A stretch of DNA of 40,141 nt, taken from the IMG/VR virus record IMGVR_UViG_2534682091_000016, one strand, 5' to 3'. Shown here piece after piece: positions 8,960-40,141 of the stretch. Made by a program: the position numbers and the translations under genes. How positions within the stretch are numbered: the first letter of the stretch is position 1; every line of letters starts with the position of its first letter. The notes under the pieces are model-generated. The model did not search any database and was not told where the DNA came from. It saw only the letters and a list, made by a program, of their open reading frames with translations. The stretch comes from a virus. Its lineage: Duplodnaviria > Heunggongvirae > Uroviricota > Caudoviricetes.

Positions 8960-9532
8960 TCAGGGGGATTCATTGCTCTTATTTGCCGGAAATTTTCTAT
9001 AAATTGTGGAAACACCTACATCAAAAATCAGTGCAATACGCTGTCTTGATTCTCCGGCCTCGAGTAAACGTCCAATCTGTGCCCACTGTTCGGTGGTCAA
9101 CTTAGGACGGCGTCCACCTACTCTGCCTTTGGCGCGAGCTGCAGCAAGCCCCGCCCTGGTACGTTCAACTATCAGTTCGCGCTCCATTTCAGCCAGGGCA
9201 CCCATGACATGAAAAAAGAAACGGCCCATTGGGGTACTGGTATCAATACTGTCAGTCAGGCTTCGGAAATTCACGCCACGCTGGCGCAGCTCTTCTATCA
9301 GCGTAACGAGATGCCGCATACTGCGCCCCAACCTGTCCAGCTTCCAGACAACCAGAGTGTCACCTGCCGATAATGTCCTGAGCAGTTTTTTCAGTCCCGG
9401 TCTGTCGGACTTAGTGCCACTGATTTTGTCCTCAAAAATCCGCTCACATCCCGCGCAGTTCAGCGCACTACGTTGCAAATCGGTGTTCTGGTCATTTGTT
9501 GACACGCGTACATAGCCAATAAGCATGATCAA
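8960..9532 (-). CDS. Serine DNA invertase (Gin/Hin/Pin/Cin family)
   Basis: N-terminus MLIGYVRVSTNDQNTDLQR...LVVWKLDRLGRS and C-terminal HTH align closely with Mu Gin as recalled; sits next to an invertible tail-fibre segment. Real start probably the third codon. Confidence 0.88.
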   Translation of the reverse strand: MIMLIGYVRVSTNDQNTDLQRSALNCAGCERIFEDKISGTKSDRPGLKKLLRTLSAGDTLVVWKLDRLGRSMRHLVTLIEELRQRGVNFRSLTDSIDTSTPMGRFFFHVMGALAEMERELIVERTRAGLAAARAKGRVGGRRPKLTTEQWAQIGRLLEAGESRQRIALIFDVGVSTIYRKFPANKSNESP

Positions 9533-9581
9533 TCCCCTGAATAAAAACCGGGGATGATGCCAGTTAGCCGTTATCTCTGCA

Positions 9582-9607
9582 TTTTCATAAACGTTGGTTT
9601 GGGAGAA
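9582..9607. repeat. Invertase crossover site 1 (gix/hix-like, 26 bp)
   Basis: TTTTCATAAACG-TT-GGTTTGGGAGAA: two imperfect 12-bp half-sites around a 2-bp core; 14 bp are an exact inverted repeat of 11148..11161. Confidence 0.75.
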
Positions 9608-10060
9608 GGCTCTGCATTACCCGTTGGTGTCCCTGTTCCATGGCCTTCCGCCACTCCGCCAACAGGCTGGCTGAAATGCAACGGCGCGGCTTTTTCTGCT
9701 GAAGAATACCCGGAACTGGCAAAGGCTTATCCGACAAATAAATTGCCTGATTTACGTGGTGAGTTTATTCGCGGCTGGGATGACGGGCGCGGGGTTGACT
9801 CTGGACGAGGTTTATTGACGGCGCAGGCGGAAACAAAGATAACTAACCACCACGGCAATGGCGGTAATGCTGATGATATTTCGGCTGGTGTTTCCGGTTC
9901 ACCTCCCAAAAACTTTGTCAGAAACGCGGATTCGGCAGTTAATGCTGGTTCTGGTTTTACCGCTTTTGGCTCTGGAAATTTGACAATGAATGGTGTTACT
10001 TCTTATTTCGGTGTCCGTCCACGCAACATCGCATTTAACTACATTGTGAGGGCTGCATAA
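9596..10060 (+). CDS. Alternative tail-fibre C-terminal cassette (silent in this orientation)
   Basis: Frame opens with the shared GLGE junction codons at site 1 and encodes a collar-type tail-fibre C-terminus (PVGVPVPW...GWLKCNGA...LPDLRGEFIRGWDDGRG); no own promoter or start expected. Confidence 0.65.
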   Translation, partial: GLGEGSALPVGVPVPWPSATPPTGWLKCNGAAFSAEEYPELAKAYPTNKLPDLRGEFIRGWDDGRGVDSGRGLLTAQAETKITNHHGNGGNADDISAGVSGSPPKNFVRNADSAVNAGSGFTAFGSGNLTMNGVTSYFGVRPRNIAFNYIVRAA

Positions 10061-10665
10061 TGGATAGCACTGTATTAAATAGCGAGTTTATTGCCACGAA
10101 GGCGGGGAATATTACTGTCTATAATTATGATGGTGAAACACGGGAATATATTTCCATATCGACTGAATATCTTGCCGTTGGTGTCGGCATTCCGGCATGT
10201 TCCTGTTTAGATGCTCCAGGCGCATACAAAGCTGGTTATGCAATCTGCCGTTCTGCAGATTTTAACTCATGGGAATATGTGCCAGACCATCGCGGTGAAA
10301 TTGTCTATGGCATCGAAACGGGGGAATCAAAAGAAATTACTGTGCCGGGGGATTACCCTGAAAATACGACCACTTTTGCCCCATTAACGCCATACGATAA
10401 ATGGGATGGTGAGAAATGGGTAACAGATACCGAGGCACAGCATAGCGCCGCAGTAGATGCAGCAGAAGTACAGCGCCAGTCTCTGATTGATGCTGCTATG
10501 GCTTCCATCAGTCTGATTCAGCTGAAATTACAGGCCGGGCGGAAACTGACGCAGGCAGAAACAACCCGGCTTAACGCTGTGCTGGATTACATTGACGCGG
10601 TGACGGCAACAGATACCAGCACCGCGCCTGATATTATTTGGCCTGTATTCCCTGAGACTGATTAA
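10060..10665 (+). CDS. Tail fibre assembly protein (Tfa/gpG/U family), alternative-orientation copy
   Basis: 201 aa, start overlaps the stop of the alternative fibre cassette (ATGA-type junction); size and character of phage tail-fibre assembly chaperones. Confidence 0.65.
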   Translation: MDSTVLNSEFIATKAGNITVYNYDGETREYISISTEYLAVGVGIPACSCLDAPGAYKAGYAICRSADFNSWEYVPDHRGEIVYGIETGESKEITVPGDYPENTTTFAPLTPYDKWDGEKWVTDTEAQHSAAVDAAEVQRQSLIDAAMASISLIQLKLQAGRKLTQAETTRLNAVLDYIDAVTATDTSTAPDIIWPVFPETD

Positions 10666-20275: not shown

Positions 20276-22042
20276 ATGAACACCACACTGACACCCGCAG
20301 ATCTCGATCCCCGTCGGCAGGCCATGCTGCTGTACTTTCAGGGATACCGCGTAGCCCGCATTGCTGAAATGCTGGGCGAGAAAGTTGCAACCGTTCACAG
20401 CTGGAAAAAACGCGACAAGTGGGGGGACTATGGGCCGCTGGATCAGATGCAGCTCACCACCGCCGCACGCTACTGCCAGCTCATTATGAAGGAGCACAAA
20501 GAAGGGAAAGATTTCAAAGAGATTGACCTGCTGGCGCGCCAGTCGGAACGCCACGCGCGGATCGGCAAGTTTAACAATGGCGGCAACGAAGCCGACTTAA
20601 ACCCTAACGTCGCCAACCGCAACAAAGGCCCGCGCCGTCAGCCGGAAAAGAATGTTTTCACCGATGAGCAGATTGAGAAGCTGGAAGAAATCTTCCATTC
20701 CTCCATGTTCAACTACCAGCGCCACTGGTGGGAAGCCGGAAAAACCAACCGCATCCGCAACCTGCTGAAGTCACGCCAGATCGGCGCGACCTTTTACTTT
20801 GCCCGTGAAGCCCTGATTGACGCTCTGCTTACCGGACGTAACCAGATTTTCCTTTCCGCCAGCAAGGCACAGGCCCACGTCTTTAAGCAGTACATCATCG
20901 ACTTCGCCAAAGAAGTGGAAGTGGAGCTGAAAGGCGATCCGATGGTGCTTCCCAACGGGGCCACACTGTATTTCCTCGGCACCAATGCCCGCACGGCCCA
21001 GAGTTACCACGGCAACCTGTATCTGGATGAATATTTCTGGATACCGAAATTCCAGGAGCTGCGCAAAGTGGCTTCCGGTATGGCTATTCACAAAAAATGG
21101 CGACAAACCTATTTTTCCACGCCATCCAGCCTGACACACAGTGCTTATCCGTTCTGGTCCGGTGCGCTATTCAACCGTGGGCGCAATAAAGCCGACAAGG
21201 TGGACATCGACCTGTCCCACAGCAATCTGGCTCCAGGCCTGCTGTGTGCAGACGGGCAATACCGCCAGATAGTCACCGTGGAAGATGCGGTGCGCGGCGG
21301 CTGTAACCTGTTCGACCTTGACCAGTTGCGCATGGAATACAGCCCGGACGAATACCAGAACCTGCTGATGTGTGAATTCGTGGACGATCTCGCGTCCGTG
21401 TTCCCGCTCAGCGAGCTGCAGGCGTGCATGGTGGACAGCTGGGAAGTCTGGACCGACTTTCATGCACTGGCCCTGCGCCCGTTTGGCTGGCGCGAAGTGT
21501 GGATCGGTTATGACCCGGCAAAAGGTACGCAAAACGGCGACAGCGCCGGGTGCGTGGTGGTGGCACCGCCAGCCGTGCCGGGCGGTAAGTTCCGCATTCT
21601 TGAGCGTCACCAGTGGCGCGGGATGGACTTCCGCGCCCAGGCTGACGCCATCAAAAAACTGACCGAACAGTACAACGTGACATACATCGGCATCGACTCA
21701 ACTGGCGTCGGCCACGGGGTTTACGAGAACGTGAAAGCGTTTTTTCCAGCCGTCCGGGAGTTTGTCTACAACCCCAACGTTAAAAACGCCCTGGTACTCA
21801 AGGCCTACGACATTATCAGCCACCGCCGTCTGGAGTTTGACGCCGGGCACACCGACATTGCGCAGTCATTCATGGCAATCCGTCGCGCCACCACCGCCAG
21901 CGGCAACCGCCCGACCTATGAAGCCAGCCGCAGCGAAGAAGCCAGCCACGCCGATCTGGCTTGGGCAACGATGCACGCATTGTTTAACGAACCGCTGCAG
22001 GGCGAATCCGCCAATACCAGCAATATTGTGGAGATTTTTTGA
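20276..22042 (+). CDS. Terminase large (ATPase) subunit gpP
   Basis: 588 aa, divergent from O and followed by the portal gene with a 4-nt overlap, as in P2. Confidence 0.88.
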   Translation: MNTTLTPADLDPRRQAMLLYFQGYRVARIAEMLGEKVATVHSWKKRDKWGDYGPLDQMQLTTAARYCQLIMKEHKEGKDFKEIDLLARQSERHARIGKFNNGGNEADLNPNVANRNKGPRRQPEKNVFTDEQIEKLEEIFHSSMFNYQRHWWEAGKTNRIRNLLKSRQIGATFYFAREALIDALLTGRNQIFLSASKAQAHVFKQYIIDFAKEVEVELKGDPMVLPNGATLYFLGTNARTAQSYHGNLYLDEYFWIPKFQELRKVASGMAIHKKWRQTYFSTPSSLTHSAYPFWSGALFNRGRNKADKVDIDLSHSNLAPGLLCADGQYRQIVTVEDAVRGGCNLFDLDQLRMEYSPDEYQNLLMCEFVDDLASVFPLSELQACMVDSWEVWTDFHALALRPFGWREVWIGYDPAKGTQNGDSAGCVVVAPPAVPGGKFRILERHQWRGMDFRAQADAIKKLTEQYNVTYIGIDSTGVGHGVYENVKAFFPAVREFVYNPNVKNALVLKAYDIISHRRLEFDAGHTDIAQSFMAIRRATTASGNRPTYEASRSEEASHADLAWATMHALFNEPLQGESANTSNIVEIF

Positions 22043-23073
22043 TGGGAAAGAGTAAGAAGAACCGCGCTGCGTCACAGAACCAGACCCAGCATAAAAGCCA
22101 GACTTCAGCCGAAGCATTCAGCTTTGGCGATCCCATTCCTGTACTGGACCGCCGCGAACTGCTGGACTATGTGGAATGCGTACAGACAGATCGTTGGTAT
22201 GAGCCGCCAGTGAGTTTCGACGGGCTGGCGCGCACCTTTCGCGCCGCCGTGCATCACAGCTCACCGATTGCAGTAAAGTGCAACATTCTGACCAGCACCT
22301 ACATCCCTCACCCGCTGCTCAGCCAGCAGGCTTTTTCACGTTTTGTGCAGGACTATCTGGTATTTGGTAACGCCTACCTGGAGAAACGCACGAACCGCTT
22401 CGGTGAAGTTATCGCCCTTGAACCGGCCCTAGCAAAATACACCCGACGCGGGTTAGACCTGGATACCTACTGGTTTGTGCAATACGGCATGACCACGCAG
22501 CCGTATCAGTTCACGAAAGGCAGTATCTTTCATCTGATGGAACCGGACATCAACCAGGAGATCTACGGCCTGCCCGGTTATCTTTCTGCCATTCCATCCG
22601 CCCTGCTCAACGAGTCCGCCACGCTGTTCCGTCGAAAGGATTACATTAACGGCAGTCATGCTGGCTTCATCATGTACATGACCGATGCCGCGCAGAACCA
22701 GGAGGATGTGAACAACCTCCGCAACGCGATGAAAAGCGCCAAAGGTCCAGGCAATTTCCGCAACCTGTTTATGTACTCCCCCAATGGCAAAAAGGATGGT
22801 ATTCAGATCATCCCACTGTCAGAGGTAGCGGCAAAAGATGAGTTTCTGAACATCAAAAACGTGAGCCGGGATGACATGATGGCTGCCCACCGCGTGCCGC
22901 CTCAGATGATGGGGATTATGCCTAGCAATGTTGGGGGGTTTGGTGATGTGGAAAAAGCAAGCAAAGTGTTTGTTAGAAATGAATTAATCCCATTGCAAAG
23001 AAGGATTCAAGAACTTAACGAATGGCTTAACATAGAAGTTATTATCTTTTCTCCATATAATTTATCCAATTGA
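22039..23073 (+). CDS. Portal protein gpQ
   Basis: 344 aa (P2 gpQ length); last roughly 40 codons are markedly AT-rich compared with the rest of the gene. Confidence 0.85.
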   Translation: MMGKSKKNRAASQNQTQHKSQTSAEAFSFGDPIPVLDRRELLDYVECVQTDRWYEPPVSFDGLARTFRAAVHHSSPIAVKCNILTSTYIPHPLLSQQAFSRFVQDYLVFGNAYLEKRTNRFGEVIALEPALAKYTRRGLDLDTYWFVQYGMTTQPYQFTKGSIFHLMEPDINQEIYGLPGYLSAIPSALLNESATLFRRKDYINGSHAGFIMYMTDAAQNQEDVNNLRNAMKSAKGPGNFRNLFMYSPNGKKDGIQIIPLSEVAAKDEFLNIKNVSRDDMMAAHRVPPQMMGIMPSNVGGFGDVEKASKVFVRNELIPLQRRIQELNEWLNIEVIIFSPYNLSN

Positions 23074-23080
23074 ATTTAAT

Positions 23081-23097
23081 GGGTAGTAAAACTACCC
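23081..23097. terminator. Bidirectional hairpin between portal and DprA-like genes
   Basis: GGGTAG-taaaa-CTACCC perfect stem 8 nt after the Q stop and 2 nt before the convergent DprA-like stop. Confidence 0.5.
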
Positions 23098-23098
23098 A

Positions 23099-24061
23099 CT
23101 AAATCAGAAAGTGACTCATATTAGATCTATAAATATCAGAATTTATCTTAATTTTGCTTATTGACTCAGATATTACATTCATCAGTGAATCATAGTCTTG
23201 ACTAGTGCGCAAGGGATTAGCCAATTCATTATCAACAAGTTGTTGAGTTCCTTCGCAATTAAGTCCCAGTGGATTATCAGCCTTATGCGGTACAACAGCA
23301 AAAATAGGTCTTGCCGCTTTAATAGCAAAATCCGCCTGCGTCATTGTCCCACTATTTTTTGCTGCTTCGATTAGTATCGAAACTGCTGATAAACCTACCT
23401 GGATTCTGTTGCGTTGCACAAATGACTGCTTGAATGCAGGCCTCCCTACAGGATACTCAGAAATCCAAGCCCCACCGTTAGATAAAATTTCATTTGCTAA
23501 TCTAGCATTTTGTTTAGGCTTAGCGCTCTCTAAACCATGAGCTAATACAGCAATTGTTTTAGCACCTGCCTTAAGAGCTGCCTTGTGTGCATTTGTATCA
23601 GTACCAATAGCTAGGCCGCTTACAATCACCACACCTCTTTCACAGATTTTCTTGGTAATTCTCTTCGTAATTTCTCCCCCTGCCATAGAAACTTCACGAG
23701 AACCAACAATTGCAACTCCTGGCATCTCACTAAGAATATTTACGTCCCCCTTCAAATATAACATTGCTGGGGGATTTGGCGTAATTGCTAAACAAATAGG
23801 GTATTTAGCATCTCCAAAAGGAATTGGAACAATCCCCAATGACAAATGCTTGCTCAAATAGTCTTCAGCATTATGCAATGACGCTATAGAAAAGGCGGAT
23901 TTTAAAATCCCGGCTGAATTAACACACTCAACCAATTCATATTCATCGGAAATAATATGGAATGGAATATCGTTAAATAATTTAAGCAACCCTTGTTCTG
24001 ATGCAAGTCTATCAACCTGTACCGATAGACCTAACAATATTTTGAATTGGGAAGGGTGCAT
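23099..24061 (-). CDS. DprA/Smf-like Rossmann-fold protein (accessory, candidate defence component)
   Basis: Core (GVVIVSGLAIGTDTNAHKAALKAGAKTIAVLAHGL...ISEYP...FVQRNRIQVGLS...IEAAKNSGT) aligns by eye with E. coli Smf/DprA. Start set at the Met with a GAGGAG Shine-Dalgarno, 4 nt after the PRTase stop. AT-rich codon usage. Confidence 0.7.
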   Translation of the reverse strand: MHPSQFKILLGLSVQVDRLASEQGLLKLFNDIPFHIISDEYELVECVNSAGILKSAFSIASLHNAEDYLSKHLSLGIVPIPFGDAKYPICLAITPNPPAMLYLKGDVNILSEMPGVAIVGSREVSMAGGEITKRITKKICERGVVIVSGLAIGTDTNAHKAALKAGAKTIAVLAHGLESAKPKQNARLANEILSNGGAWISEYPVGRPAFKQSFVQRNRIQVGLSAVSILIEAAKNSGTMTQADFAIKAARPIFAVVPHKADNPLGLNCEGTQQLVDNELANPLRTSQDYDSLMNVISESISKIKINSDIYRSNMSHFLI

Positions 24062-24065
24062 TATT

Positions 24066-24635
24066 TCACTCCTCATAATTAGCTGTTTCTAGTAACGCCA
24101 GTGGCAATATTGTCTTTGCGCCTGCATATCTTAACAGATAATAGCACGCCGTCATACTCCCCCCAGTTGTAGTAACATCATCAATAAGGAGAATAACCTT
24201 ATCAGCCACATTGGATGTAACTCCGATTGTTGACATATGATGTTCGACAGAACGATCTCCGCCCCCCTTATGAGCACTCACTACTGTTGTTTTTCTCTGT
24301 AATGATTGGTTATATACAGCATTAGGAAATTTTTTCGCAATATCTTGCGCTATTTTTATTAAAGCTTGAGATACTTTTCCCTCAGCATGAGAAGGAACAA
24401 TTGTTATCTCAAAGGGCACGTCGGTAAAAGCAACCCTACCAATCACATAGCTTTGGAGGCTAGAAGTTAAAAGTTGGGTAAAAATATTAACAGCCTTTGC
24501 ATACCCGGAATTTGAAGCGTCCTTCAAATCCATCATTGCCTTTGAAAGTCTATCCCCGGAACGAGGATTTCGCTCTCCTCGATATCGCCAAGGATGATAT
24601 GTACCGCAAGAGTAAATTTTGATTGGCCCCATCAT
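24066..24635 (-). CDS. Phosphoribosyltransferase-domain protein (ComF/PRTase-like; accessory, candidate defence component)
   Basis: 189 aa with the PRPP-binding signature VILLIDDVTTTGGS; co-oriented and near-abutting with the DprA-like gene. Confidence 0.7.
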   Translation of the reverse strand: MMGPIKIYSCGTYHPWRYRGERNPRSGDRLSKAMMDLKDASNSGYAKAVNIFTQLLTSSLQSYVIGRVAFTDVPFEITIVPSHAEGKVSQALIKIAQDIAKKFPNAVYNQSLQRKTTVVSAHKGGGDRSVEHHMSTIGVTSNVADKVILLIDDVTTTGGSMTACYYLLRYAGAKTILPLALLETANYEE

Positions 24636-24762
24636 TTTTCTGCGCCTTAAGAGTAGATATATCCATATTAAATGGATACTTACATCATTTACAACCCAAA
24701 AAATGACACCAAGTTATCACTAATGACTTAGGTTCAAATGCCAAACTAACTCTCTGCGCGCG

Positions 24763-24781
24763 CTCGTATCCCCGCCACGCC
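24763..24781 (-). other. Candidate cos site (19-nt cohesive-end sequence)
   Basis: Minus strand reads GGCGTGGCGGGGATACGAG; the first 13 nt match the P2/186 cohesive ends as recalled from memory (GGCGAGGCGGGGAAAGCAC / GGCGTGGCGGGGAAAGCAT). Confidence 0.45.
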
Positions 24782-24830
24782 TGCCCGCTTTATGTAGTGG
24801 TTTTCATGCAGGTGCATGATCTACGCAAAA

Positions 24831-24853
24831 GCCCGCCAGTTCTGGCGGGCTTT
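24831..24853. terminator. GC-rich hairpin (terminator-like) near the cos-like site
   Basis: GCCCGCCAG-ttc-TGGCGGGC with flanking A-run and T-run, so could terminate in either direction. Confidence 0.45.
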
Positions 24854-25123
24854 AGCAAAAACGATCCTCAAACGATCATGCAATCTCATGCAGCATAGAC
24901 ATGCACAGACGAGTAAAGCGAATCGGACTTTACGCAAGGTGAACTCCTCAGCGGGCATAATCAGTATGTCGGAAGATCTCTAAAAATGAATAATTCGGTT
25001 AACAGGTATGCTTACAAAAGCATATATTTGATTAAAAATCATGTAAGGGGGAGGATCTCAAACTGAATCGCCACGGGTTTTACAAATTTCGATAGTCTCT
25101 CTAACGTTTCGGCTGAGGTCAAA

Positions 25124-25549
25124 ATGAAAAGCTTTTACGTATTAATTTTAATTCTGGTTGCAAGCTTTGTTAGCGTCCCAGTTCAGGCGGTAACAGCTAA
25201 AAACTATGAGAAAGGAACTAAAGCTCAACAGAAATCAATATCTTACCTTTCATGTGCATTCTATGGCAGTAGCACACAATTAGATCCTAGCTACACGGAG
25301 CAAGTACCTACAGCCGATATCAAGATATTACAGAAAGCAGCTTACCACGCTTACAACGATGCGCTCTCATACTTTGGTTATGAGGAACCAGATCACGAAC
25401 AACGCATAATTGATTATGCTGAATTTGTGGCGTCGCAAGAAGCTGTGTTATGGGATAAACCGGGAATGAATGGAAAGCAGGTAACACTAATTGCTCGTTC
25501 TCTCTACAATGAGAGTAACTGTAACTTGTTACTGGACTCAATTAAGTAG
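25124..25549 (+). CDS. Hypothetical secreted protein (signal peptide)
   Basis: 141 aa; N-terminal signal peptide (MKSFYVLILILVASFVSVPVQA); lone plus-strand gene between cos and the SOS module. Confidence 0.55.
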   Translation: MKSFYVLILILVASFVSVPVQAVTAKNYEKGTKAQQKSISYLSCAFYGSSTQLDPSYTEQVPTADIKILQKAAYHAYNDALSYFGYEEPDHEQRIIDYAEFVASQEAVLWDKPGMNGKQVTLIARSLYNESNCNLLLDSIK

Positions 25550-25708: not shown

Positions 25709-25942
25709 TTAATGCAGCCAGCTGTCGTCTTCCCACACCTTCTGCATAATTTTCATCACTTGTTTTCTTTCTTCGTCCAGTTGCAGTCCGGTCAGTTCCA
25801 CACCGTTAGAGCTACCTTTACGGATACGGATTACCGTTTTGGGATACAGGGGGCGCAGATTGCGGTAAAGCTCGGATTCAAGGGCGTCCAGGGTAGACTG
25901 GCTAATCTTCTGCTCTTTATCGATCATTATTTCAATGCGCAT
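25709..25942 (-). CDS. DinI-family protein
   Basis: MRIEIMIDK...LDALESEL...VIRIRKGSSNGVELTG...KIMQKVWEDDSW resembles E. coli DinI; start chosen at the Met with a GAGGTG Shine-Dalgarno rather than the longest ORF. Confidence 0.75.
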   Translation of the reverse strand: MRIEIMIDKEQKISQSTLDALESELYRNLRPLYPKTVIRIRKGSSNGVELTGLQLDEERKQVMKIMQKVWEDDSWLH

Positions 25943-25952
25943 AAAAGTCACC

Positions 25953-26141
25953 TCAGCTGATGACATCCATTGAGCGGTTGTATTCGTGGGTTCTGATTTT
26001 TGCCATGAGTTCATCAGTCAATTCAGAAACCCACTGCAGAGCCAGCCCCTTCTCTTCATCACTACACTCACTAGCCGCTACAAGCTTAAGAAAAAAATCA
26101 ATGCGCTGGAGCTTCAAAGACTCCAAAAAATAGTCCTGCAT
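25953..26141 (-). CDS. Small protein, first gene of LexA-box operon (possible Tum-like antirepressor N-terminal part)
   Basis: 62 aa from the Met with an AGGAGG Shine-Dalgarno; 44 nt downstream of a perfect LexA box; stops 10 nt before the DinI-like start. Confidence 0.5.
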   Translation of the reverse strand: MQDYFLESLKLQRIDFFLKLVAASECSDEEKGLALQWVSELTDELMAKIRTHEYNRSMDVIS

Positions 26142-26184
26142 CTTTCCTCCTATGACACCACACGCAACACTGTATGTATAACCA

Positions 26185-26200
26185 CTGTTTATATTTACAG
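26185..26200. promoter_or_regulatory. LexA box (SOS operator)
   Basis: CTGTTTATATTTACAG fits CTGT-N8-ACAG with an AT-rich centre; an overlapping half-site CTGTATGTATAA lies just upstream. Confidence 0.7.
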
Positions 26201-26294
26201 TATATAATAATCTTACTGATGTAAAACGTTTTTTTACGTTCATCAGCCTGATATGCCTGGTATTATTAAGAGCACGAATTGTTAACCCGCGTAA

Positions 26295-28709
26295 TTAATA
26301 CAGGTTCCGCCACTGATCATCTTCCTGCAAACGCTGGTTCCGATAGAAGATACGCAGGCCTGCTCCTGACGGAATACTGCCTCCGCGAAGGAGTAAATCG
26401 ACCTCTTTCTCGCTGCCATCAAATCCTCTGGACTTCAGCTCATACACGAGCTGCAGTCGCTGATGGTCTGTAATTCGCTGTTTGTAGTCTTTACGCCGTT
26501 TCGGTTTCACCAGGCGTAACCTTGCTGCCAGTTCCCGGCGCTCTTTTTTGCTCATACTGTGCAGGTAATCGTGCAACTCCTTGTCATCCATGCGGGTAAT
26601 GTCCGTCCTGGTATCCCCATCAGCTGATTTATCTTTCCCTTGTTGGTTCAAATTTTCAGCAAGGGGACAGTTATTGCCACGAGTCCAAGGGGCGCAAGCG
26701 CCCTGGTCGGCTGCCGCCTCCTGAACGTCAACGGCTTTACGAACCATTTTCCACTTCACTGCATGAGTGCAGATCTTGCCCTCTGCAATGGGTGACCAGA
26801 TGCCATAAATACGAATACCGTGATCGCCATAGGCGGTCGGCTCTTCGTTGATTTCATAAGCGGTTCTGATGAGGTGATATTTACGGGGAACCAGTACGCC
26901 GCCCTGCTTCATGATGTAGGTGGCAAAGCAACCAGCATCAGCTGCAGCCAGAATGGCATCAAGGCGCGGGTTATCCAGTACCGGCGCACCTGCTTTTTTG
27001 TCACCCTGTTGCCTTGCCGCCTGACCAGCCAGCAATCGCAGTTCACGGTAAGCCTGACGCCCCGGAATGCCAAAGAAGCGGAATTGCTGAACACGATGCA
27101 GAGACGCCCAGGCATTAACGTATTCAGCGTTATTACGCAGAGATTTACCCGTTTCCTTGCTGATCTCGCCAGCCAGACCACGCCCGTCAATGTTCTTACT
27201 GATATATTTCGCGATGTAGCTTGTCGGCGTTCCTTTGCGCGGGTTAATCAACTCAGACTTAAAGCGCGGCCCAGTGTTATTGCCCAGCTCCTCGCGGTCT
27301 TCACGGATGGCAAACTTACGCAGTAATGCAGTGATGGCGCGGCGATCTTTTTTGCGCATAAAACACAACAGGTGCCAGTGAACTGTACCGTCATGATGCG
27401 GCTCAGCCACCCGCACGCCATACCAGCGCAATCCGGCTTTGTGCATCGCCTTACGAAATGCAGCAAACATGCCGACCAGATAGTCGCTGCTTTGTCTTAC
27501 CGTCGAGTTTGTCCAGGTCGGGTTGGGTCTGCCGTTATTGAGCGTGGAATGGAAACGCGACGGACAGGTGATAGTGTAGAAAACGGCGCAGTCACCGCGC
27601 ATTTCCGCGATAAGCTCCAGACCTTTAACACAGGCCATCATCTCATTGCGGCGATGCGCCGGGTTGCTGCTGCTGGCGTTTACCACATCTTCCATATCCA
27701 GCGTGTCGCCGTCTTCGTTCACCAGTTCATGAGAACGGAAAAACTCCAGCGACTTACGGCGCTGCTCACGTTTATGCATCACGGCTTCATAGCTGACATA
27801 GGGGGATGCTTTTTTGCTGACCAGGCAGACAGCACGCAACTGCTCTTCCCGCCATTCGCAACGCATCTTCCATAATTTCCGATACCACCAGTCGGCACAC
27901 AACATACGCGCCAGCGAACCCGGAATGAGTTCATAGGGCACGGGTTTACGGCGGTTTCTTTTCCGACGGAGTTGCTCAAACGCAGGCGGAATAACATCCA
28001 GACGCAGGGTTTCCGCTGCCACCTTTTCCCATGTTTTGCGGATTTCTTCTGGCTTAACGTCATCGGTGGCATACAAATCACCACAAGCGGCATCAAGGCA
28101 CATGCTCATATGCGCAGCGACAAGGGGGGACAGGCGCTTCACCTGATCCTGACTCATTTCAGGCAGGATAAGCAGGCCATCCAGCCCTTCATGGCTTGCC
28201 ATAAAGCGAAAAGAAGTGGATAGCTGACAGTCGCGGACATGCTCCAGTCGTTCCAGACATGGCTTAATCGTCTCACGCAAATAGCGGGAATAAGCCTTTG
28301 GCCTGCCCAGGCTGCTGAAATATTCAATACGTTGCATCAGCGGCTTGCTGATATGGGAAGGCTGGGCGTTGACGTCAGCCAGAATGACCATGTCCGGATT
28401 AAAACGCTGCTGCTCATGCGCCAGCTTTGCCCGGCTAATGAGCTTATCCTGCTCCATTTCGCGCTGGACAGGATCACGGGATTCATTAAAGAAATAACGC
28501 TCCCAGACCTGATCACTCAGTGCCTCGCGGCGCAGTTGTTCCTGCTCGTTATCGGCAGCGTACAGAGTGATCAGGTTTGAAAGTGCAGAAACCGGCGCAA
28601 CTTCCGCCGGGTCCAGATAAGGGTTAATGGCCTTTTTTGGGCTGTTCCATGAGAATGCTGCGGCGACCTCGTTAAAGCCGCTGCAGTTGTTCATATCAGC
28701 ATGGCTCAT
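26295..28709 (-). CDS. Replication initiation endonuclease gpA (rolling-circle Rep, HUH family)
   Basis: About 800 aa with HUH motif (VHWHLL) and Tyr motif ([12 protein letters not shown]); start placed at the ATG overlapping the dam stop (ATGA); longest ORF runs to 28736. Confidence 0.85.
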
Positions 28710-29563
28710 GCACGCACTCCGTACACGGCGGAACAATCCACGCCACGCGAAGGATCAAATCCTATCCAGCAGCGCGGCCCGGCAACAGCAATGATTTCTG
28801 TTGCAGATTTACTCTCACCAGCTGCCACGCCGATGCTGCGTTTTGCCTTGATGTAGTGGTGAGTAAAATTGCGATACAGCGAACGGATCAGGGATGTGTC
28901 ACTGTTAGAAATAATGACCGGATATCCTTCTGATGACCGATGTTCAAGAACGGATGCCAGGTGATACTGGTCATCTTCAGTGAAACCATCAGTGTGATAG
29001 CCGGAAAACGTACCGTCATAAGGCGGATCGCAATACACCACATCCCCCGCGTGCAACATCGCCAGCGTTTCATCGAAGCTGGCGCAGATAAACGTTGCCC
29101 GCTGGGCTTTTACTGCAAATGCACGAATTTCTTTTTCAGGAAAATACGGATTTTTATAATTACCGTAGGGAATGTTGAAATGCCCGCTCTTGTTATAGCG
29201 ACATAAACCACGGTAACCGTGACGATTGAGATACAGGAAATATATCGCTTTCATGAAATCAGTAATTTCAGTTGAGTAATTAAACTCCTGCCTTATGTTG
29301 TAATAATCCATCTCCCTGTTTGCGTTCTCAAATAAAACTCTGGCGCGAGATATAAACGATTCACAATCAGCGGCAACCTTTTTATAGAGGTTGATTAAAT
29401 CAGGATTAATATCCGCAACCAGATAGCTGGGATAATCCGTCTCCATCATCACAGCACAGGAACCCGCGAAAGGTTCAACCAGTCGCGGGCCAGCAGGAAG
29501 ATGTTTTTTCAGTTCGGACATTATGGCAGTTTTATTTCCCGCCCATTTCAGGATGGTGCTCAT
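28706..29563 (-). CDS. dam: DNA adenine methyltransferase (Dam family)
   Basis: N-terminus ILKWAGNK...[10 protein letters not shown] and DPPY motif (VVYCDPPY); start at the ATG with a GGAGGTG Shine-Dalgarno, overlapping the upstream stop. Confidence 0.85.
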
Positions 29564-33786: not shown

Positions 33787-35523
33787 CTACTCAAGAAGAT
33801 ATTCTAACTCATCTTTTATCGGGATAACTTGCTCATAAAGTCGGTGATATGACTTCCCAATTGCGCCTCTGAATTGTATTAACTTTGGTGGCTTGTTACC
33901 TATATTAATAATATGGTCTTGAGCTATACCTGGGTAGGGATCAATAAATACAATTTCAGATATACCTAACTGATAAGCTTTTTTCGCACACAGCTCACAG
34001 GGACTGGCAGTTGTATATAACCTCCCCCCCTGAACGCCAATGCCACCATATTTTGCAAGTTGTAAAAATGCGTTTTCCTCAGCATGTAATGCACGTGTAT
34101 GAACTTGATTACCTTTTTTATCTTTATCAAGATCATTATGTATATCTTTAAAACAATAAGATAAGTTCCTGCCTCTATAAATATCACCAGTTTTATCTAT
34201 CGCCCTAAAATTTAATAGTTTCTCATTAGCTTTAATTCTGAAAGAACTATTATTTCTCTCATAATAACTGTACACTTTTTCATCAAAGTCGTTCATTAGG
34301 CCATCTAGCGATCTCATAGAGCAAGGAATCTGACCGTTGGCGACATCATTCCAACCCACTGATTTTATTGAATTTTCACCATCAGTTACTACAGCTCCCA
34401 CCTGTCTAGATATACAACCAGAGTTTAATTTTACCGTATACGCAACTTGCATAACCCTTTCCATTGCAGTAGGTGTTATCAGACCAGGATGCTTCATCAG
34501 TGCGATGTACCACGCTAATTGTGCTTTTAAAATATTGTCATTATCAAATTCATTTTTTGGGTTAAAAATGTGTATATCTGATAGTTCAATGCATTTAGTT
34601 ACATTTGGATTAGTGAGATGTTTGTAAGAGTTATCACCTTTACCTGACTCTACAGAATCTATTTCCTCTATCTGCTTTTCAGAAAACTTATGTAGTTTCC
34701 GCAAATAGTTTGTTCGATGTTCATCTGGGGCATTTATTGACATTAAATGAAATGCAGAATATCTATCCTTAAAAAATTTTGCTTCATATGGATTTCTAAT
34801 AGCATCTATGACAATTAATGCGTTATCTCTTTTGCTTTTTCTTATTAATTTAATAACCCTATTAATAGTTTCCGGCAAATGAAAAACAGATTTAGGTATA
34901 AACTCTTTATCTTCAAAATCGACTTCAATACGCCCACGGCGTCTAATTGACTTACCTGCTAACTGATAGACTGAAACATATAAATTTGAGTTTATCGCAT
35001 TTAGTTCAGCTTTGAATTCCTTAGTAAATTTTCTAACTAACCTCAAAATTGATATAAATTTATTAATCGTTTTTTCATTAAGCTTCAATTCACTATTATG
35101 ATCAAGCAAATTCTCAATTACATTTTTAAATCTTGTTAAAATGAGATTATCTGAAAATACACCAAAAGTTAATACATTATCTAAATGCTCTTTACTGATA
35201 GATTTATTAGATGATAGAATAAACTCAGAAGCTTCTTCAACTGTTAACATCAAAAGATACGCTGAGATTAGGTCACTCACCTTAATTGAGTAAAAATTTT
35301 CCCAGTGATTTTCTGCGAATTTTTTAACTATATTATAACGATGGACATCCAATCCCTTGTAAAAACCCTGTAATTTACTTACATCAGGGAAGACTGTTTT
35401 TTCGTTTTCAAGAATATTAGCTGTTGTTGTGCAACCAGAACCAGTTCGACCTGTCAAACCGACTAAAATAAACTGCCCATTTTCAAGGAAAAGCTCACTA
35501 ACGAATTTTTTTTCTTTCATCAC
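33787..35523 (-). CDS. Kinase-like P-loop domain fused to CMP/dCMP-type deaminase domain (candidate defensive dCTP deaminase)
   Basis: 578 aa; N-terminal P-loop GLTGRTGSGCTT; C-terminal zinc-deaminase motifs HAEENA and SPCELCAKK; strongly AT-rich compared with the flanking prophage genes. Confidence 0.7.
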   Translation of the reverse strand: MMKEKKFVSELFLENGQFILVGLTGRTGSGCTTTANILENEKTVFPDVSKLQGFYKGLDVHRYNIVKKFAENHWENFYSIKVSDLISAYLLMLTVEEASEFILSSNKSISKEHLDNVLTFGVFSDNLILTRFKNVIENLLDHNSELKLNEKTINKFISILRLVRKFTKEFKAELNAINSNLYVSVYQLAGKSIRRRGRIEVDFEDKEFIPKSVFHLPETINRVIKLIRKSKRDNALIVIDAIRNPYEAKFFKDRYSAFHLMSINAPDEHRTNYLRKLHKFSEKQIEEIDSVESGKGDNSYKHLTNPNVTKCIELSDIHIFNPKNEFDNDNILKAQLAWYIALMKHPGLITPTAMERVMQVAYTVKLNSGCISRQVGAVVTDGENSIKSVGWNDVANGQIPCSMRSLDGLMNDFDEKVYSYYERNNSSFRIKANEKLLNFRAIDKTGDIYRGRNLSYCFKDIHNDLDKDKKGNQVHTRALHAEENAFLQLAKYGGIGVQGGRLYTTASPCELCAKKAYQLGISEIVFIDPYPGIAQDHIINIGNKPPKLIQFRGAIGKSYHRLYEQVIPIKDELEYLLE

Positions 35524-35760: not shown

Positions 35761-35925
35761 CTTTTTAGTTGTTTGAAGTTCAATGAAGTCTACTAAGCCC
35801 ACACAGCACAAGCTCTGCGGGCTTTTTTACGTCTATTGTCGTCCAGTGAGAATTGCTGAGAACTACGAGTTATGGCACCCTGAATGGGACCCACTAAGAA
35901 GGGTCCAAAAACCGAGGGTCCCAAA

Positions 35926-37155
35926 ATGGCAAAAATCGCTAAGAAGCTCACTGACACTGAAATCAAAAGCACCAAGCCAGCCGATAAAGAAATCAACTTG
36001 TTTGACGGTGATGGTCTGATTCTACGAATCGCTCCTTTGGCGAAAGGAGGCAAGAAAAATTGGTATTTCAGGTATGCAGTACCAGTGAGCAAGAAAAGAA
36101 CCAAAATGAGCCTTGGGACATATCCTCACCTTACCCTTGCAAGAGCCAGAGCCTTACGTGATGAATATCTCTCCTTTCTGGCAAATGGTGTTGATCCCCA
36201 AATCCATAACAACGATAAGGCGAAGGCATTAAAGAGTGCTACTGAGCACACTCTCCAAGCCGTAGCGCGGAAATGGTTAGATGAGAAGGTAAAGACATCA
36301 GGTATCTCACAAGACCATGCAGCAGACATCTGGCGCAGCTTAGAGAGAAATGTCTTTCCCGGTCTGGGTAATGTCCCTATCAATGAGATCCGACCTAAGC
36401 TCTTAAAACAACACCTTGATCCTATTGAGCAACGAGGCGTATTGGAAACTCTACGCCGTATCATTTCACGTCTGAATGAAATCTTCCGGTGGGCAGCTAC
36501 TGAAGAACTTATTGAGTTCAACCCGGCTGACAACCTTGGTCAAAGATTCAGTAAACCAAAAAAGCAAAATATGCCTGCCCTTCCCCCAAGCGAATTGCCA
36601 AGGTTTATGGAATCTTTGACGAATGCGTCAATCCGGTTGGAAACACGTATGCTAATTGAATGGCAATTGTTGACATGGGTTCGTCCGGGTGAAGCCGTTC
36701 GCGCAAGGTGGTCTGATATTGATACAACCAACAGCATTTGGAACATTCCTGCTGATTTCATGAAAATGAAAAAGCTTCACAAAGTTCCTTTGAGTAAAGA
36801 AGCTTTGCGCATCCTTGAATTAATGAAATCAATAAGTGGGCATAGAGAATGGGTTTTCCCCAGCATAAAAGCGCCTCTTAATCATATGCATGAACAAACA
36901 GCCAACGCAGCTATCATCCGAATGGGGTTCGGAGGCGAGCTTGTAGCTCACGGTATGCGTTCTATTGCACGAACAGCGGCAGAGGAGTCTGGTAAATTCA
37001 GAGCTGAAGTTCTTGAGGCAGCGCTTGCCCACTCGAAAAAAGATGAAATTATCGCAGCATACAATCGTGCAGAATATCTGATAGAGCGACAGAGTTTGAT
37101 GCAATGGTGGAGTGATTACGTTCAAGCTCAAAGATCAAATGCTCTGGTAGCCTAA
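35926..37155 (+). CDS. P4-type tyrosine integrase (CP4-57 IntA-like)
   Basis: N-terminus MAKIAKKLTDTEIKSTKPADKE...DGDGL is the typical P4-family arm-binding start; HGMRS and C-terminal Tyr region present; GAGGG Shine-Dalgarno. Longest ORF starts at 35884. Confidence 0.85.
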   Translation: MAKIAKKLTDTEIKSTKPADKEINLFDGDGLILRIAPLAKGGKKNWYFRYAVPVSKKRTKMSLGTYPHLTLARARALRDEYLSFLANGVDPQIHNNDKAKALKSATEHTLQAVARKWLDEKVKTSGISQDHAADIWRSLERNVFPGLGNVPINEIRPKLLKQHLDPIEQRGVLETLRRIISRLNEIFRWAATEELIEFNPADNLGQRFSKPKKQNMPALPPSELPRFMESLTNASIRLETRMLIEWQLLTWVRPGEAVRARWSDIDTTNSIWNIPADFMKMKKLHKVPLSKEALRILELMKSISGHREWVFPSIKAPLNHMHEQTANAAIIRMGFGGELVAHGMRSIARTAAEESGKFRAEVLEAALAHSKKDEIIAAYNRAEYLIERQSLMQWWSDYVQAQRSNALVA

Positions 37156-37193
37156 GTATCAGAATAGCTAATATAATCCTGAAGGTAAAGAAA

Positions 37194-37610
37194 ATGGAAA
37201 CCCTATTCAAAGTTTTTGAAAAATTTAGTTCCAGACCACTTTTTTTTATTTTTTTCGGACTCTCACTTTGTGAATTTTTTCAGAAACAATCTGTTCTGAT
37301 GAATCCATCAGCAGATAACATCGCGAAATTATTCGCAGCCATGATATTAGTTGTTTTTTTTACTTGGGGATTTGAATGGCTAATCTTCAAGTTCAATGTA
37401 AACCTTGAACCTCATGATCAAGGCGATATTGGACCAACAATTGGAACGGCTACTTTAGCTGTATACTTAGTTTATGCCTTTCACTTTCTCAGTGAAAATC
37501 CTGAAGCATTAAATTTAAAGTTATTAACTAACTCTGGCTTTATATACAGCACAACTCTATTATTATTCTCATTAGAATGCATGAAGCTTAGAAGACTTAA
37601 ACAAAAATAA
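37194..37610 (+). CDS. Hypothetical integral membrane protein (about 4 TM helices)
   Basis: 138 aa with four hydrophobic stretches; AT-rich; between the P4-type int and the two-component-like module. Confidence 0.5.
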   Translation: METLFKVFEKFSSRPLFFIFFGLSLCEFFQKQSVLMNPSADNIAKLFAAMILVVFFTWGFEWLIFKFNVNLEPHDQGDIGPTIGTATLAVYLVYAFHFLSENPEALNLKLLTNSGFIYSTTLLLFSLECMKLRRLKQK

Positions 37611-37682
37611 ACAACATCATTGTGATGATAAATATAAAATAGGCATGGCGAAAAAAAAATCACCACGCCTAAAATATAATAA

Positions 37683-39449
37683 TTATGGTAGCATCATTGA
37701 TACATAATCCACACCAATCCTTGAGCTATACTGAGACGCTATAGCCTGATATCTTTCTGCATAACCAGTTCTCAGTTGAGATTTAAGTTTGAGTCGGACA
37801 GGAACATTTTGCACGTTGCCATCCATATTACTTAAAAACACGGCAGAAATAATATTTTTTTCTTCGCCATCAACTGTTGTTCCATGATTCAACACCACCA
37901 TATAATCAACAACAGGAAGCGTTTTATCCCCTTCGAAAATAGAGAGATATTTTCTTTGATTTTTATGCATTACATATATATATTTCGAATGTTCAGCAAA
38001 TGGCAATGCTTTACTCTGACTGGCGTTAAAAAGCTCCAGAACTTTAATGAGCCTGTGCGGACTTAATCTTACATGGTGAGGGTCGTTACCCTGAGTAGGA
38101 ACCAAATCACATGCCGCAGATACACATAAATACCATTTGTTCGACTCTGTATCAAAGAAAATAGTGCCAGTAGAAATATGACCATCTTCAAAATTCTTTG
38201 AAGACAAATTCATATTTAAAGCATGATACATTTCGTGATAAGTATCATTATTTGATGGCAGATCCATTTTTGAAGAGCAATATTGGAGCAATGCAGCAAC
38301 TCCGCTGTTAGCGTATTCATTTGAATAGCTATCAAAAACACTTTTGATAAATTCATCCAGCGTATTATTATTTTTAAGTCTTTGATAAAGCTCTTCTGAT
38401 AAATTACCAAATACAAAGTCAATATTTCTACATCTAATATCAGGCGAGTCTGATTTTAATATCTCATTTAACCACGCAGCTTGACCGTAATGATCGTTAG
38501 CCAAATGATTTACAAAAGATAAAGCCTCAGCTTCGATTGCATTCTGAATTTCAGATTTTATTAACTGATAATAAGATGGTTTCCATTCAATGAGAGAATC
38601 ATTGAGAGTTTGCCAAATCCTATCTCCATCGTTTTCATGATCATCTTGAACCTTATGAAATAGGGAGACAAAGATATTACCACATTGAATCCATTTTACT
38701 CCGCTTTCATCACCCCGAATGACATTGCCAGATGTGTTGCTAGAAATAATTGCATTTCTAGACACAGCATATTCTGCAATCATTTTTGCAATGAAGTTTT
38801 TATCCTTTTGATCCTCCAACACAGCATCATCATGTATTAATCTTTTAATTCTTCTACAAGGCTTACTGTCTTTAATATAGGCTATTGTTTCATCTCTTGT
38901 GAGAGCTTTATTACCATTATCATTTAAGTTCGGTAATACAACGTCTTCCCAATAACTTTGGACATCTTCATTATCGTAGTCAATGATCAAGCTGTTGATA
39001 TCCAGAGCACCTTTGAGAGTCGATGATATCTGCATCCAAACCGTTTCTAAATTCTCTCTAGTATATATTACAATCATATTTAAATGATCGGAGTCTTTCA
39101 AATCTTGTAATAGTTTAAGTGTTTTATCAGGTGCATTATTATCAAGATGATAATCTACAATAATAAGATCTGATTTTCTAATCCGATCCACATCGAAATT
39201 AACAGAACCATTGTCAACATCACAAATCATATTTTTAGATTGAAAAAAGCTCTCAAGAGTAGCGGCTCGTTTAGATGAGTCAATTTTGTTGTAGTCTAAA
39301 TCAACTTCGTTATTCAACGCCCTGATTGATTCAGAATACGTCAGAAAATCGTCATCAATCATGACAACGGAACGAATTGCATTTTCGCAGAAAGTTTTCT
39401 GGACAAGAGAATTATAATTTGCCACTGTCATATTAGAACTCCACTCCAT
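37683..39449 (-). CDS. Receiver (REC)-like domain protein with large uncharacterised C-terminal domain
   Basis: 588 aa; N-terminus has receiver hallmarks in order (VVMIDDD, LIIVDYHL, IVIYTRE, downstream Lys); remaining 450 aa unrecognised; start overlaps the upstream ATPase gene by 17 nt. Confidence 0.6.
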   Translation of the reverse strand: MEWSSNMTVANYNSLVQKTFCENAIRSVVMIDDDFLTYSESIRALNNEVDLDYNKIDSSKRAATLESFFQSKNMICDVDNGSVNFDVDRIRKSDLIIVDYHLDNNAPDKTLKLLQDLKDSDHLNMIVIYTRENLETVWMQISSTLKGALDINSLIIDYDNEDVQSYWEDVVLPNLNDNGNKALTRDETIAYIKDSKPCRRIKRLIHDDAVLEDQKDKNFIAKMIAEYAVSRNAIISSNTSGNVIRGDESGVKWIQCGNIFVSLFHKVQDDHENDGDRIWQTLNDSLIEWKPSYYQLIKSEIQNAIEAEALSFVNHLANDHYGQAAWLNEILKSDSPDIRCRNIDFVFGNLSEELYQRLKNNNTLDEFIKSVFDSYSNEYANSGVAALLQYCSSKMDLPSNNDTYHEMYHALNMNLSSKNFEDGHISTGTIFFDTESNKWYLCVSAACDLVPTQGNDPHHVRLSPHRLIKVLELFNASQSKALPFAEHSKYIYVMHKNQRKYLSIFEGDKTLPVVDYMVVLNHGTTVDGEEKNIISAVFLSNMDGNVQNVPVRLKLKSQLRTGYAERYQAIASQYSSRIGVDYVSMMLP

Positions 39450-39818
39450 TGAACTGGATCACAAAATTAGCGCCATCTTTTATTAAATAGTTATCGCCTT
39501 CATCAGGTTCTGAATACCATATTTTATGATGTGCAACAGCAAGGTTTTCTCGACATAGATACAGACCTACCCCATGTCCATTTGCTCTTTTGCTATAAAA
39601 TAGTTCAAATAGTCGCGGGATATCATCGGTATCAATTGCCGGACCAGAATTTGCTATGATAACCAAAGAATTCACAAAACCAATCTTTATGAGCCTATTA
39701 TTTGACAGACTGACCCAATACATTGCATTGTTGATAATATTAGTAAAAACAGGATAGATCCTTGATGGTATATCTGTTATTGCGATTTGCTTAAACTCTT
39801 CACTAAATTCAATAGTTA
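39433..39818 (-). pseudogene. Histidine-kinase-type ATPase (HATPase_c) gene, 5'-truncated by IS3 insertion
   Basis: N-box (VFTNIINNAMYW), G1 (ANSGPAID) and G2 (GHGVGLYL) boxes present; frame is open to the IS3 boundary with no start codon in native sequence; the apparent start of the track ORF lies inside the IS3 terminal repeat. Confidence 0.6.
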
Positions 39819-40141
39819 TGATCTTACCCAGCAATAGTGGACACGCGGCTAAGTGAGTAAACTCTCAGTCAGAGGTGACTCACATGACAAAAACAGTATC
39901 AACCAGTAAAAAACCCCGTAAACAGCATTCGCCTGAATTTCGCAGTGAAGCCCTGAAGCTTGCTGAACGCATCGGTGTTACTGCCGCAGCCCGTGAACTC
40001 AGCCTGTATGAATCACAGCTCTACAACTGGCGCAGTAAACAGCAAAATCAGCAGACGTCTTCTGAACGTGAACTGGAGATGTCTACCGAGATTGCACGTC
40101 TCAAACGCCAGCTGGCAGAACGGGATGAAGAGCTGGCTATC
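39819..40141 (+). mobile_element. IS3 insertion sequence, left end (partial)
   Basis: Terminal sequence TGATCTTACCCAGCAATAGTGGACACGCGG... followed 65 nt later by the orfA start, matching IS3 as recalled. Confidence 0.8.
39884..40141 (+). CDS. insA: IS3 transposase OrfA (partial, continues past window end)
   Basis: Translation MTKTVSTSKKPRKQHSPEFRSEALKLAERIGVTAAARELSLYESQLYNWRSKQQ... matches IS3 OrfA as recalled. Confidence 0.85.
   Translation, partial: MTKTVSTSKKPRKQHSPEFRSEALKLAERIGVTAAARELSLYESQLYNWRSKQQNQQTSSERELEMSTEIARLKRQLAERDEELAI

Follow-up and report, generated by a model that had tools for sequence, protein, structure and literature searches.

The stretch of DNA analysed here, IMGVR_UViG_2534682091_000016 (40,141 nt; "the window" below means this whole stretch), represents a 186/P2-like prophage in which two adjacent, co-oriented genes on the minus strand lie between the portal gene Q and the replication gene A. 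The upstream gene encodes a phosphoribosyltransferase (PRTase) and the downstream gene a DprA-like protein; both match models of the ShosTA defence family, and they are referred to here as the shosT-like and shosA-like genes. An earlier account made from the nucleotide sequence without database searches (the sequence-only reading) had described them as two co-oriented, AT-rich genes separated by 4 nt. The cassette consists of the following features:

23074..23104, no strand: inverted repeat with 14-nt arms and a 3-nt loop, between the convergent stop codons of Q and the shosA-like gene (repeat search)
23099..24061, minus strand: shosA-like gene, encoding a DprA-like protein of 320 aa from its likely start (Met6)
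24066..24635, minus strand: shosT-like gene, an open reading frame (ORF) of 189 aa encoding a single-domain type I PRTase without an N-terminal pyrophosphatase domain
24069..24074, minus strand: Shine-Dalgarno-like GAGGAG within the last codons of the shosT-like gene, with a 7-nt spacer to the Met6 ATG of the shosA-like gene (read directly from the sequence)
24636..24751, minus strand: AT-rich leader 5′ of the shosT-like gene, assigned to the cassette and presumed to hold the promoter

The 4-nt distance depends on the start codon chosen for the shosA-like gene. Counted from its first ATG, the ORF occupies 23099..24076 (325 aa) and overlaps the shosT-like ORF by 11 nt, whereas a start at the sixth codon (ATG 24061..24059) leaves a 4-nt gap, so that the earlier description is borne out with Met6. 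We favor this start because of the GAGGAG motif and its spacer, because it is the one used in the RefSeq annotation of a 99.9% identical prophage, and because the PHROG profile alignment of the protein begins at residue 6; homologues are, moreover, mostly 320 aa long. The position of the putative ribosome-binding site of the shosA-like gene inside the 3′ end of the shosT-like gene suggests translational coupling. The AT-richness was likewise confirmed, the GC content being 0.37-0.39 over positions 23001-24500 against 0.50-0.60 in the flanking phage genes (about 0.38 for the pair and about 0.55 for the phage core). The hairpin at 23074..23104 is terminator-like in sequence and would form the left edge of the cassette. 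The leader holds a second inverted repeat, TATCCAT-N5-ATGGATA, at 24660..24678; no LexA box was found upstream of the pair, and no conservation of the upstream sequence was seen across distant homologous loci.

The DprA-like protein matches DNA_processg_A (PF02481) in a Pfam search with E=7.9e-60 and the PADLOC ShosA model PDLC03961 with E=8.5e-70 (233 bits), and its translation contains the SGLAIGTDTNAHKAAL and QRNR motifs pointed out in the sequence-only reading. Identity to ShosA of Escherichia coli APEC O1 is 34% over 201 aa. R127 and R222 correspond to ShosA R139 and R234 and are invariant in 33 homologues, and K188, equivalent to the RecA-contacting K200 of APEC O1 ShosA, is kept. The AlphaFold (AF2) model, with a predicted local distance difference test score (pLDDT) of 93, consists of a helical N-domain, a Rossmann fold and a long C-terminal helix (residues 292-324), and it matches the DprA structures 3maj and 3uqz and the ShosA structure 8zva (E=8e-18 for 8zva) over about 300 columns, with LOG proteins and nucleosidases appearing lower in the fold-search list. 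Canonical dprA was considered and rejected, as the scores were 181.3 against a cutoff of 191.15 for TIGR00732 and 161.3 against 495 for NF008007, the 374-position PRK10736 DprA equivalog, which matches at profile positions 75-267 only.

The PRTase is very distant in sequence from the characterized ShosT. The phosphoribosyl pyrophosphate (PRPP)-binding motif VILLIDDVTTTGGS, also noticed earlier, is present in the 189-aa translation, and the PADLOC ShosT model PDLC03962 is matched with E=2.7e-18 over residues 7-184. The narrow PADLOC ShosT model PDLC03012, on which APEC O1 ShosT scores 973 bits, is not matched by the short protein. An AF2 model built from 26 homologues (pLDDT 89) has as its best match among solved structures that of ShosT with PRPP-Mg (8zvc; E=1.3e-6, TMq 0.59, root-mean-square deviation 2.6, 165 columns); H. 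pylori ComF (7p0h) comes after it and ordinary salvage PRTases rank below. D152 and D153 align with the catalytic D331 and D332 of ShosT and are invariant in the 26 homologues. Strand 75-79 and helix 90-102 of the model are joined by a long loop that resembles the "prolonged PPi loop" described for ShosT, PPi being pyrophosphate. H83, K123 and R128, the candidate counterparts of ShosT H240, K280 and R285, lie in loops similar in position and length to those of ShosT, but sequence alignments place these residues inconsistently and more distant homologues do not share H83. The N-terminal part of the family contains one invariant cysteine (C10). Kinship with competence proteins had been proposed for both genes; that of the PRTase with ComF is confined to the fold level and to a sub-threshold match.

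The family to which the pair belongs has been characterized elsewhere. Rousset et al., who showed the A-Q hotspot of P2 to be rich in defence systems, cloned from it a "DprA + PRTase" system that protects against T7 and lambda (Rousset 2022; PMC9122126); the system tested came from E. coli APEC O1 (pFR105; PMC9122126). First reported as a toxin-antitoxin system, ahead of any defence role, and validated also by Millman 2022, it is now named ShosTA. The sequence-only reading had named a candidate DprA-PPRT defence family with no biochemical mechanism known to it. The family was named correctly, yet the tested APEC O1 system represents a different subtype, the status of candidate has been superseded by validation, and the mechanism has been partly worked out, with structures 8zva-8zvd and 9vzo available (Pu 2025, Yang 2026; PMC11961720, PMC12961424). 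In APEC O1, the toxin ShosT and the antitoxin ShosA do not interact by binding; ShosT binds PRPP but none of the purines tested, and when expressed it upsets purine metabolism and gives rise to filamentation and DNA duplications (PMC11961720). Toxicity is abolished by D331A/D332A (PMC11961720), both residues being essential (PMC11961720, PMC12961424), and only marginally reduced by the pyrophosphatase mutation R56A (PMC11961720). ShosA binds ssDNA (single-stranded DNA), promotes recombination between short repeats and is unstable via its C-terminus, and the system is set off when T7 Gp0.7 shuts down transcription (PMC11961720). Antitoxin activity needs R139 and R234 (for ssDNA), dimerization and a direct, ssDNA-sensitive RecA contact through K200/R206, and titration by phage ssDNA has been proposed as the trigger (PMC12961424).

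The window pair shares with ShosTA of APEC O1/KTE181 the two-gene arrangement of a PRTase toxin with a DprA-like antitoxin, a location in the cos-proximal A-Q hotspot of P2-like prophages, the broad PADLOC models, the conserved PRPP-site aspartate pair and R139/R234, and the ShosA layout of helical N-domain, Rossmann fold and extra C-terminal helix. By the broad ShosTA definition of PADLOC-DB v2, the locus holds a ShosA-matching DprA domain and a ShosT-matching PRTase in adjacent, co-oriented genes. A difference lies in the toxin, which has 424 aa and an N-terminal HAD/pyrophosphatase domain in APEC O1/KTE181 but only 189 aa, all of it PRTase, in the window.

This short form recurs. In nine of nine loci, the window included, a shosA-like gene immediately follows a short shosT homologue on the same strand, with 4-nt gaps or overlaps; the loci come from Enterobacterales, Aeromonas, Shewanella, Pseudidiomarina and Burkholderia. 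Apart from the window, the short pair is found at the following places:

Salmonella phage SopEPhi (AY319521): orf14/orf15, in the Q-to-cos slot
Hafnia: a P4-like satellite, adjoining its cos
Shewanella and Aeromonas: Mu-like prophages
Enterobacter, Burkholderia, Atlantibacter and Pseudidiomarina: chromosomal sites

The SopEPhi genes are annotated only as "unknown", and no functional study of them was found, but the pair, its order and its slot (Q, orf15, orf14, cos) are as in the window, with 69% DNA identity. In Enterobacterales the short toxin forms 29 close clusters, nearly all of 187-208 aa (three are shorter). A profile search of 1.8 billion representatives gave 754 relatives at E<=1e-10, and 129 of the best 150 of these are no longer than 230 aa; some relatives are fused to RecQ, HAD or AAA_11 domains. 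Since short relatives dominate and the fusions vary, the PRTase core is the constant unit and the added domains the variable one. A scan of genome contigs with the toxin alignment returned four loci, two of them true homologues, which is too few for a census. Within E. coli the pair is present in 14 of 5426 complete genomes, compared with 1242 that share flanking sequence (the portal end or the cos block), and ShosTA of the APEC O1 type occurs in 30. The pair is thus accessory cargo rather than a core phage component. In a related prophage (NZ_CP148423.1, locus L005), the Q-to-cos slot is taken by a TIR-domain gene (3142..3942). As variable cargo between gpQ and gpA beside cos, the pair fits the P2-like A-Q defence hotspot (Rousset 2022).

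The position of the cassette relative to cos is set by the following features, for which the prophage gene names were taken from an annotated twin locus (99.9% identical pair):

20276..22042: terminase ATPase gene (named after the annotated twin locus)
22039..23073, plus strand: portal gene Q (ORF list, annotated twin locus)
24752..24870, no strand: cos-like non-coding block of 186/Fels-2-type phages, the right boundary of the cargo slot and outside the system
24769..24781, minus strand: cos core motif GGCGTGGCGGGGA, a single occurrence in the window with 0 expected by chance
26295..28736, minus strand: replication endonuclease gene A (ORF list, annotated twin locus)

The genes for CI, CII, Fil, Dam and the integrase are located beyond A. 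The exact 19-mer of P2 cos, with up to three mismatches, has no match in the window, and the site was found instead through a shorter shared core, GGCGWGGCGGGGA; the motif GGCGTGGCGGGGA is taken to be cos in view of the 186 and P2 cos sequences. It stands at the head of a 116-bp non-coding block, which shows 90-97% identity across 106 phage records in the databases and is unannotated there. The motif also occurs at the corresponding position in APEC O1, in SopEPhi, in the TIR-carrying relative and in two P4-like satellites. The block common to other phages starts only at about 24752, and the cargo unit extends from the hairpin after the stop codon of Q (23074..23104) to that point. Given the positions of Q, A and the single cos motif, the pair lies on the Q side of cos, as had been proposed; the slot is not an unusual one, the relative having its TIR gene and SopEPhi the same pair there.

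From all this, we consider it probable (roughly 0.75) that the two genes form a small toxin-antitoxin cassette of the ShosTA family that would act by abortive infection, an accessory cargo with which the prophage would exclude other phages. The analysis establishes the domain identities, the family assignment, the predicted folds, the conservation of key residues, the strict linkage of the genes and their distribution as mobile accessory cargo, whereas toxicity, neutralization, defence, trigger and substrate are inferred for the window pair by analogy with the characterized systems. The ShosT-like PRTase would bind PRPP via its DD-TTGG loop and transfer or consume the phosphoribosyl group on an acceptor, disturbing nucleotide (purine) metabolism and leading to replication stress and DNA damage. 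The ShosA-like protein, without binding the toxin, would offset this damage through ssDNA binding and RecA-dependent recombination repair, as in a type IV toxin-antitoxin system. Upon infection, the antitoxin could be lost or diverted, either by shut-off of host expression combined with rapid turnover or by titration onto phage ssDNA, and the pre-made toxin would then halt DNA replication in the infected cell. The window would hold a minimal form of such a system, in which the toxin acts without an accessory pyrophosphatase domain and in which the toxin gene comes first, the antitoxin being apparently translationally coupled to it. A toxin consisting of the PRTase only is plausible, since the R56A mutant of the long ShosT is only marginally less toxic.

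A number of observations weigh against this interpretation. The Pfam match of the PRTase to Pribosyltran (PF00156; E=8e-07) is barely over threshold, with 28.9 bits against a cutoff of 26.3, and alignment to APEC O1 ShosT by BLASTP, hhalign and an unfiltered hidden Markov model covers only 41-45 residues around the PRPP loop (44 columns in the case of hhalign) at 37% identity; a Smith-Waterman alignment is also reliable at the PRPP loop only. In a search of PDB sequences with the short PRTase, no match reached an E value under 0.01 and those up to E=10 were all confined to the PRPP loop; the structural alignment to 8zvc shows 19% identity. On the antitoxin side, the model is as close to canonical DprA (3maj, 3uqz) as to ShosA (8zva), the RecA contact R206 of ShosA is replaced by A194, and the dimer-interface residues L181/F182 are replaced by K169/A170. 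The RecA and dimer interfaces may differ between the ShosA subtypes, and going by these replacements, notably the missing R206 equivalent, both may work differently in the short one. The C-terminus is predicted to be a long helix and not the disordered tail said to destabilize APEC O1 ShosA; if the model is right, the instability determinant may differ as well in the short subtype. Gene order and placement also depart from the APEC O1/KTE181 arrangement, where the antitoxin gene precedes the toxin gene and the pair lies on the A side of cos (in APEC O1: Q, cos at 6197-6209, shosA of 327 aa, shosT of 424 aa, A), whereas in the window the toxin gene comes first and the pair is on the Q side. No minus-strand sigma-70 promoter was found upstream of the shosT-like gene at the threshold of the scan. 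Furthermore, even for characterized ShosTA there is dispute over the acceptor substrate and the trigger (PMC11961720, PMC12961424), and no experimental test of the short-toxin subtype was found in the searchable literature, the original 2012/2013 toxin-antitoxin papers not included.

Other explanations of the locus have to be considered against the same data. One could imagine that the pair is a toxin-antitoxin addiction module which stabilizes the prophage or satellite, through post-segregational killing or by guarding the cos-proximal region, and does not act in phage defence. The two-gene toxin/antitoxin logic would be the same, the pair occurs nearly exclusively on mobile elements of P2-like, Mu-like and P4-like types, and ShosTA was originally described as a toxin-antitoxin before its defence role was known. 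However, integrated prophages profit little from addiction of the plasmid type, the tested cargoes of the hotspot are defence systems, and relatives in the family gave 10^6-fold protection against T7, so that a role in addiction instead of defence appears unlikely, although the two roles are not mutually exclusive. It could also be that nucleic acid itself is the target of the toxin, which might, for instance, phosphoribosylate ssDNA bases in a manner analogous to DarT, with the DprA-like partner working at the lesion instead of via general repair. The idea stems from the fact that no tested purine binds ShosT, from the constant pairing with an ssDNA-binding protein of the DprA/SLOG fold, and from the ssDNA-handling ComF being the nearest fold other than ShosT. 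LOG enzymes are phosphoribohydrolases, and the distant fold kinship of the DprA-like partner to LOG proteins and nucleosidases would suit a lesion-reversing role; even so, we regard such a chemistry as rather improbable.

The pairing of a PRTase fold with a DprA fold, both tied to ssDNA and RecA, is also that of ComFC-DprA in natural transformation, and a module derived from it might serve the phage by acting on ssDNA, loading RecA and promoting recombination or protecting phage DNA, without any toxin. ComF is the top match of the PRTase in NCBIfam and its H. pylori representative the fourth-best fold match, the DprA-like protein comes near the dprA equivalog cutoff (181.3 against 191.15 bits) and resembles canonical DprA structures equally well, and APEC O1 ShosA does promote recombination between short repeats. 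Nevertheless, ShosT outranks ComF in the fold search, the PADLOC ShosT and ShosA models fit both proteins, and the pair turns up only sporadically, as cargo of about 1% of related prophages, and is not core. The ComF score (TIGR00201) is 28.5 against a cutoff of 233.55, and with its single invariant N-terminal cysteine the PRTase lacks the four-cysteine zinc finger, for which reasons comF itself was rejected. Both window proteins stay under the competence family cutoffs, the DprA-like protein is without the C-terminal domain of E. coli Smf, and the genes are mobile cargo outside any competence regulon. A DNA-handling module of this kind is therefore very improbable. Least credible, and in our view hardly to be expected, is that the PRTase is an auxiliary metabolic gene of nucleotide salvage which raises the nucleotide supply for phage replication, with the DprA-like gene as an unrelated neighbor. 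Weak similarity to PRTases for adenine, uracil and orotate, and also to PRPP synthetase, could point this way, but it is limited to the PRPP loop and scores far under the family cutoffs, the scores for salvage PRTases being below the curated cutoffs throughout; the strict linkage of the two genes in the nine loci and their position in a cargo slot, outside the replication module, speak against it. Among known defence systems, PsyrTA/RqlHI likewise joins a DprA-like antitoxin to a PRTase-containing toxin, and the PADLOC PsyrA model is matched with E=4e-29. The PsyrT match (E=3e-10), however, is limited to the C-terminal PRTase part (profile positions 553-686 of 689); the RecQ-like helicase of that toxin is absent from the window toxin, and the scores are far below those of the ShosTA models.

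If the pair is taken as a ShosTA cassette, the result is mostly confirmatory, in that it places a known defence family in a known prophage hotspot: the family, the hotspot and the general mechanism are already published, the proteins match existing defence models, and current annotation tools would label the pair. What is new here is the description of a distinct, recurrent and minimal ShosTA subtype. Should it prove toxic and protective, the pyrophosphatase domain would be dispensable and the search for the ShosT substrate could use an enzyme of 189 aa, and the reversed gene order with apparent translational coupling would provide a contrast for how the ratio of toxin to antitoxin is set. A likely function is also offered for two long-unannotated genes of SopEPhi and for cassettes in Mu-like prophages and P4-like satellites. 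If the toxin did act on nucleic acid, a new kind of DNA-modifying toxin-antitoxin chemistry would be involved.

Further cargo was observed at cos in the window and in related elements. On the A side of cos, the window carries at 25124..25549 (plus strand) a 141-aa ORF with a hydrophobic N-terminal segment, which is a second cargo in the A-Q hotspot; it matches only phrog_7437 (unknown function), over its full length, and has no match in Pfam, NCBIfam or PADLOC. In the NZ_CP148423.1 prophage, the A side of cos holds more cargo, including an ASCH-domain gene and a fragment of a restriction endonuclease, and with cargo on each side there, both sides of cos are cargo slots. In Enterobacter asburiae CP134641.1 (locus L003), the chromosomal pair, next to an ars operon, has the cos-block-like sequence GGGCAGGCGTGTCGGGATACTAGTG upstream, at about 5836..5900, which suggests that a P2- or P4-like element, decayed since then, brought the cassette in. 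E. coli GDAR2-2 (locus L004, 32087..41801; 99.9% identical pair) harbors the prophage followed by a P4-like satellite with the cos motif at 36187-36199, and the satellite has a SIR2-family gene and an ATP-binding gene near its cos, so that helper and satellite each carry different defence cargo.

Elsewhere in the window, also to the A side of cos, a small ORF and after it a DinI-like gene (PF06183, E=1.3e-22) are encoded at 25709..26243 (minus strand). Close upstream, at 26185..26200, the sequence CTGTTTATATTTACAG agrees perfectly with the LexA-box consensus. The arrangement resembles the SOS-controlled Tum antirepressor operon of phage 186, and with such an operon the prophage would presumably be SOS-inducible. 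At 8960..10665, a serine recombinase (Resolvase + HTH_7, E=2.7e-53) adjoins genes for tail fibres and tail-fibre assembly in opposite orientation, an arrangement that resembles an invertible host-range segment. Next to the prophage integrase, on its outer side, a 578-aa protein is encoded at 33787..35523 (minus strand) in a very AT-rich stretch (GC content 0.30-0.37). It has matches to dCMP_cyt_deam_1 in Pfam and, with E=8e-145, to the dCTPase defence model of PADLOC; by these matches, its gene is a second, independent putative nucleotide-targeting defence gene adjoining the prophage. A second integrase with a P4-type arm-binding domain follows at 35884..37155 (region 35884..39834), and after it comes an AT-rich minus-strand pair made up of a 588-aa Response_reg_2 protein (PF19192) and a 133-aa HATPase_c ORF overlapping its start. 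The latter pair, for which PADLOC gave no match, may be an uncharacterized defence or signalling pair on an integrative island.

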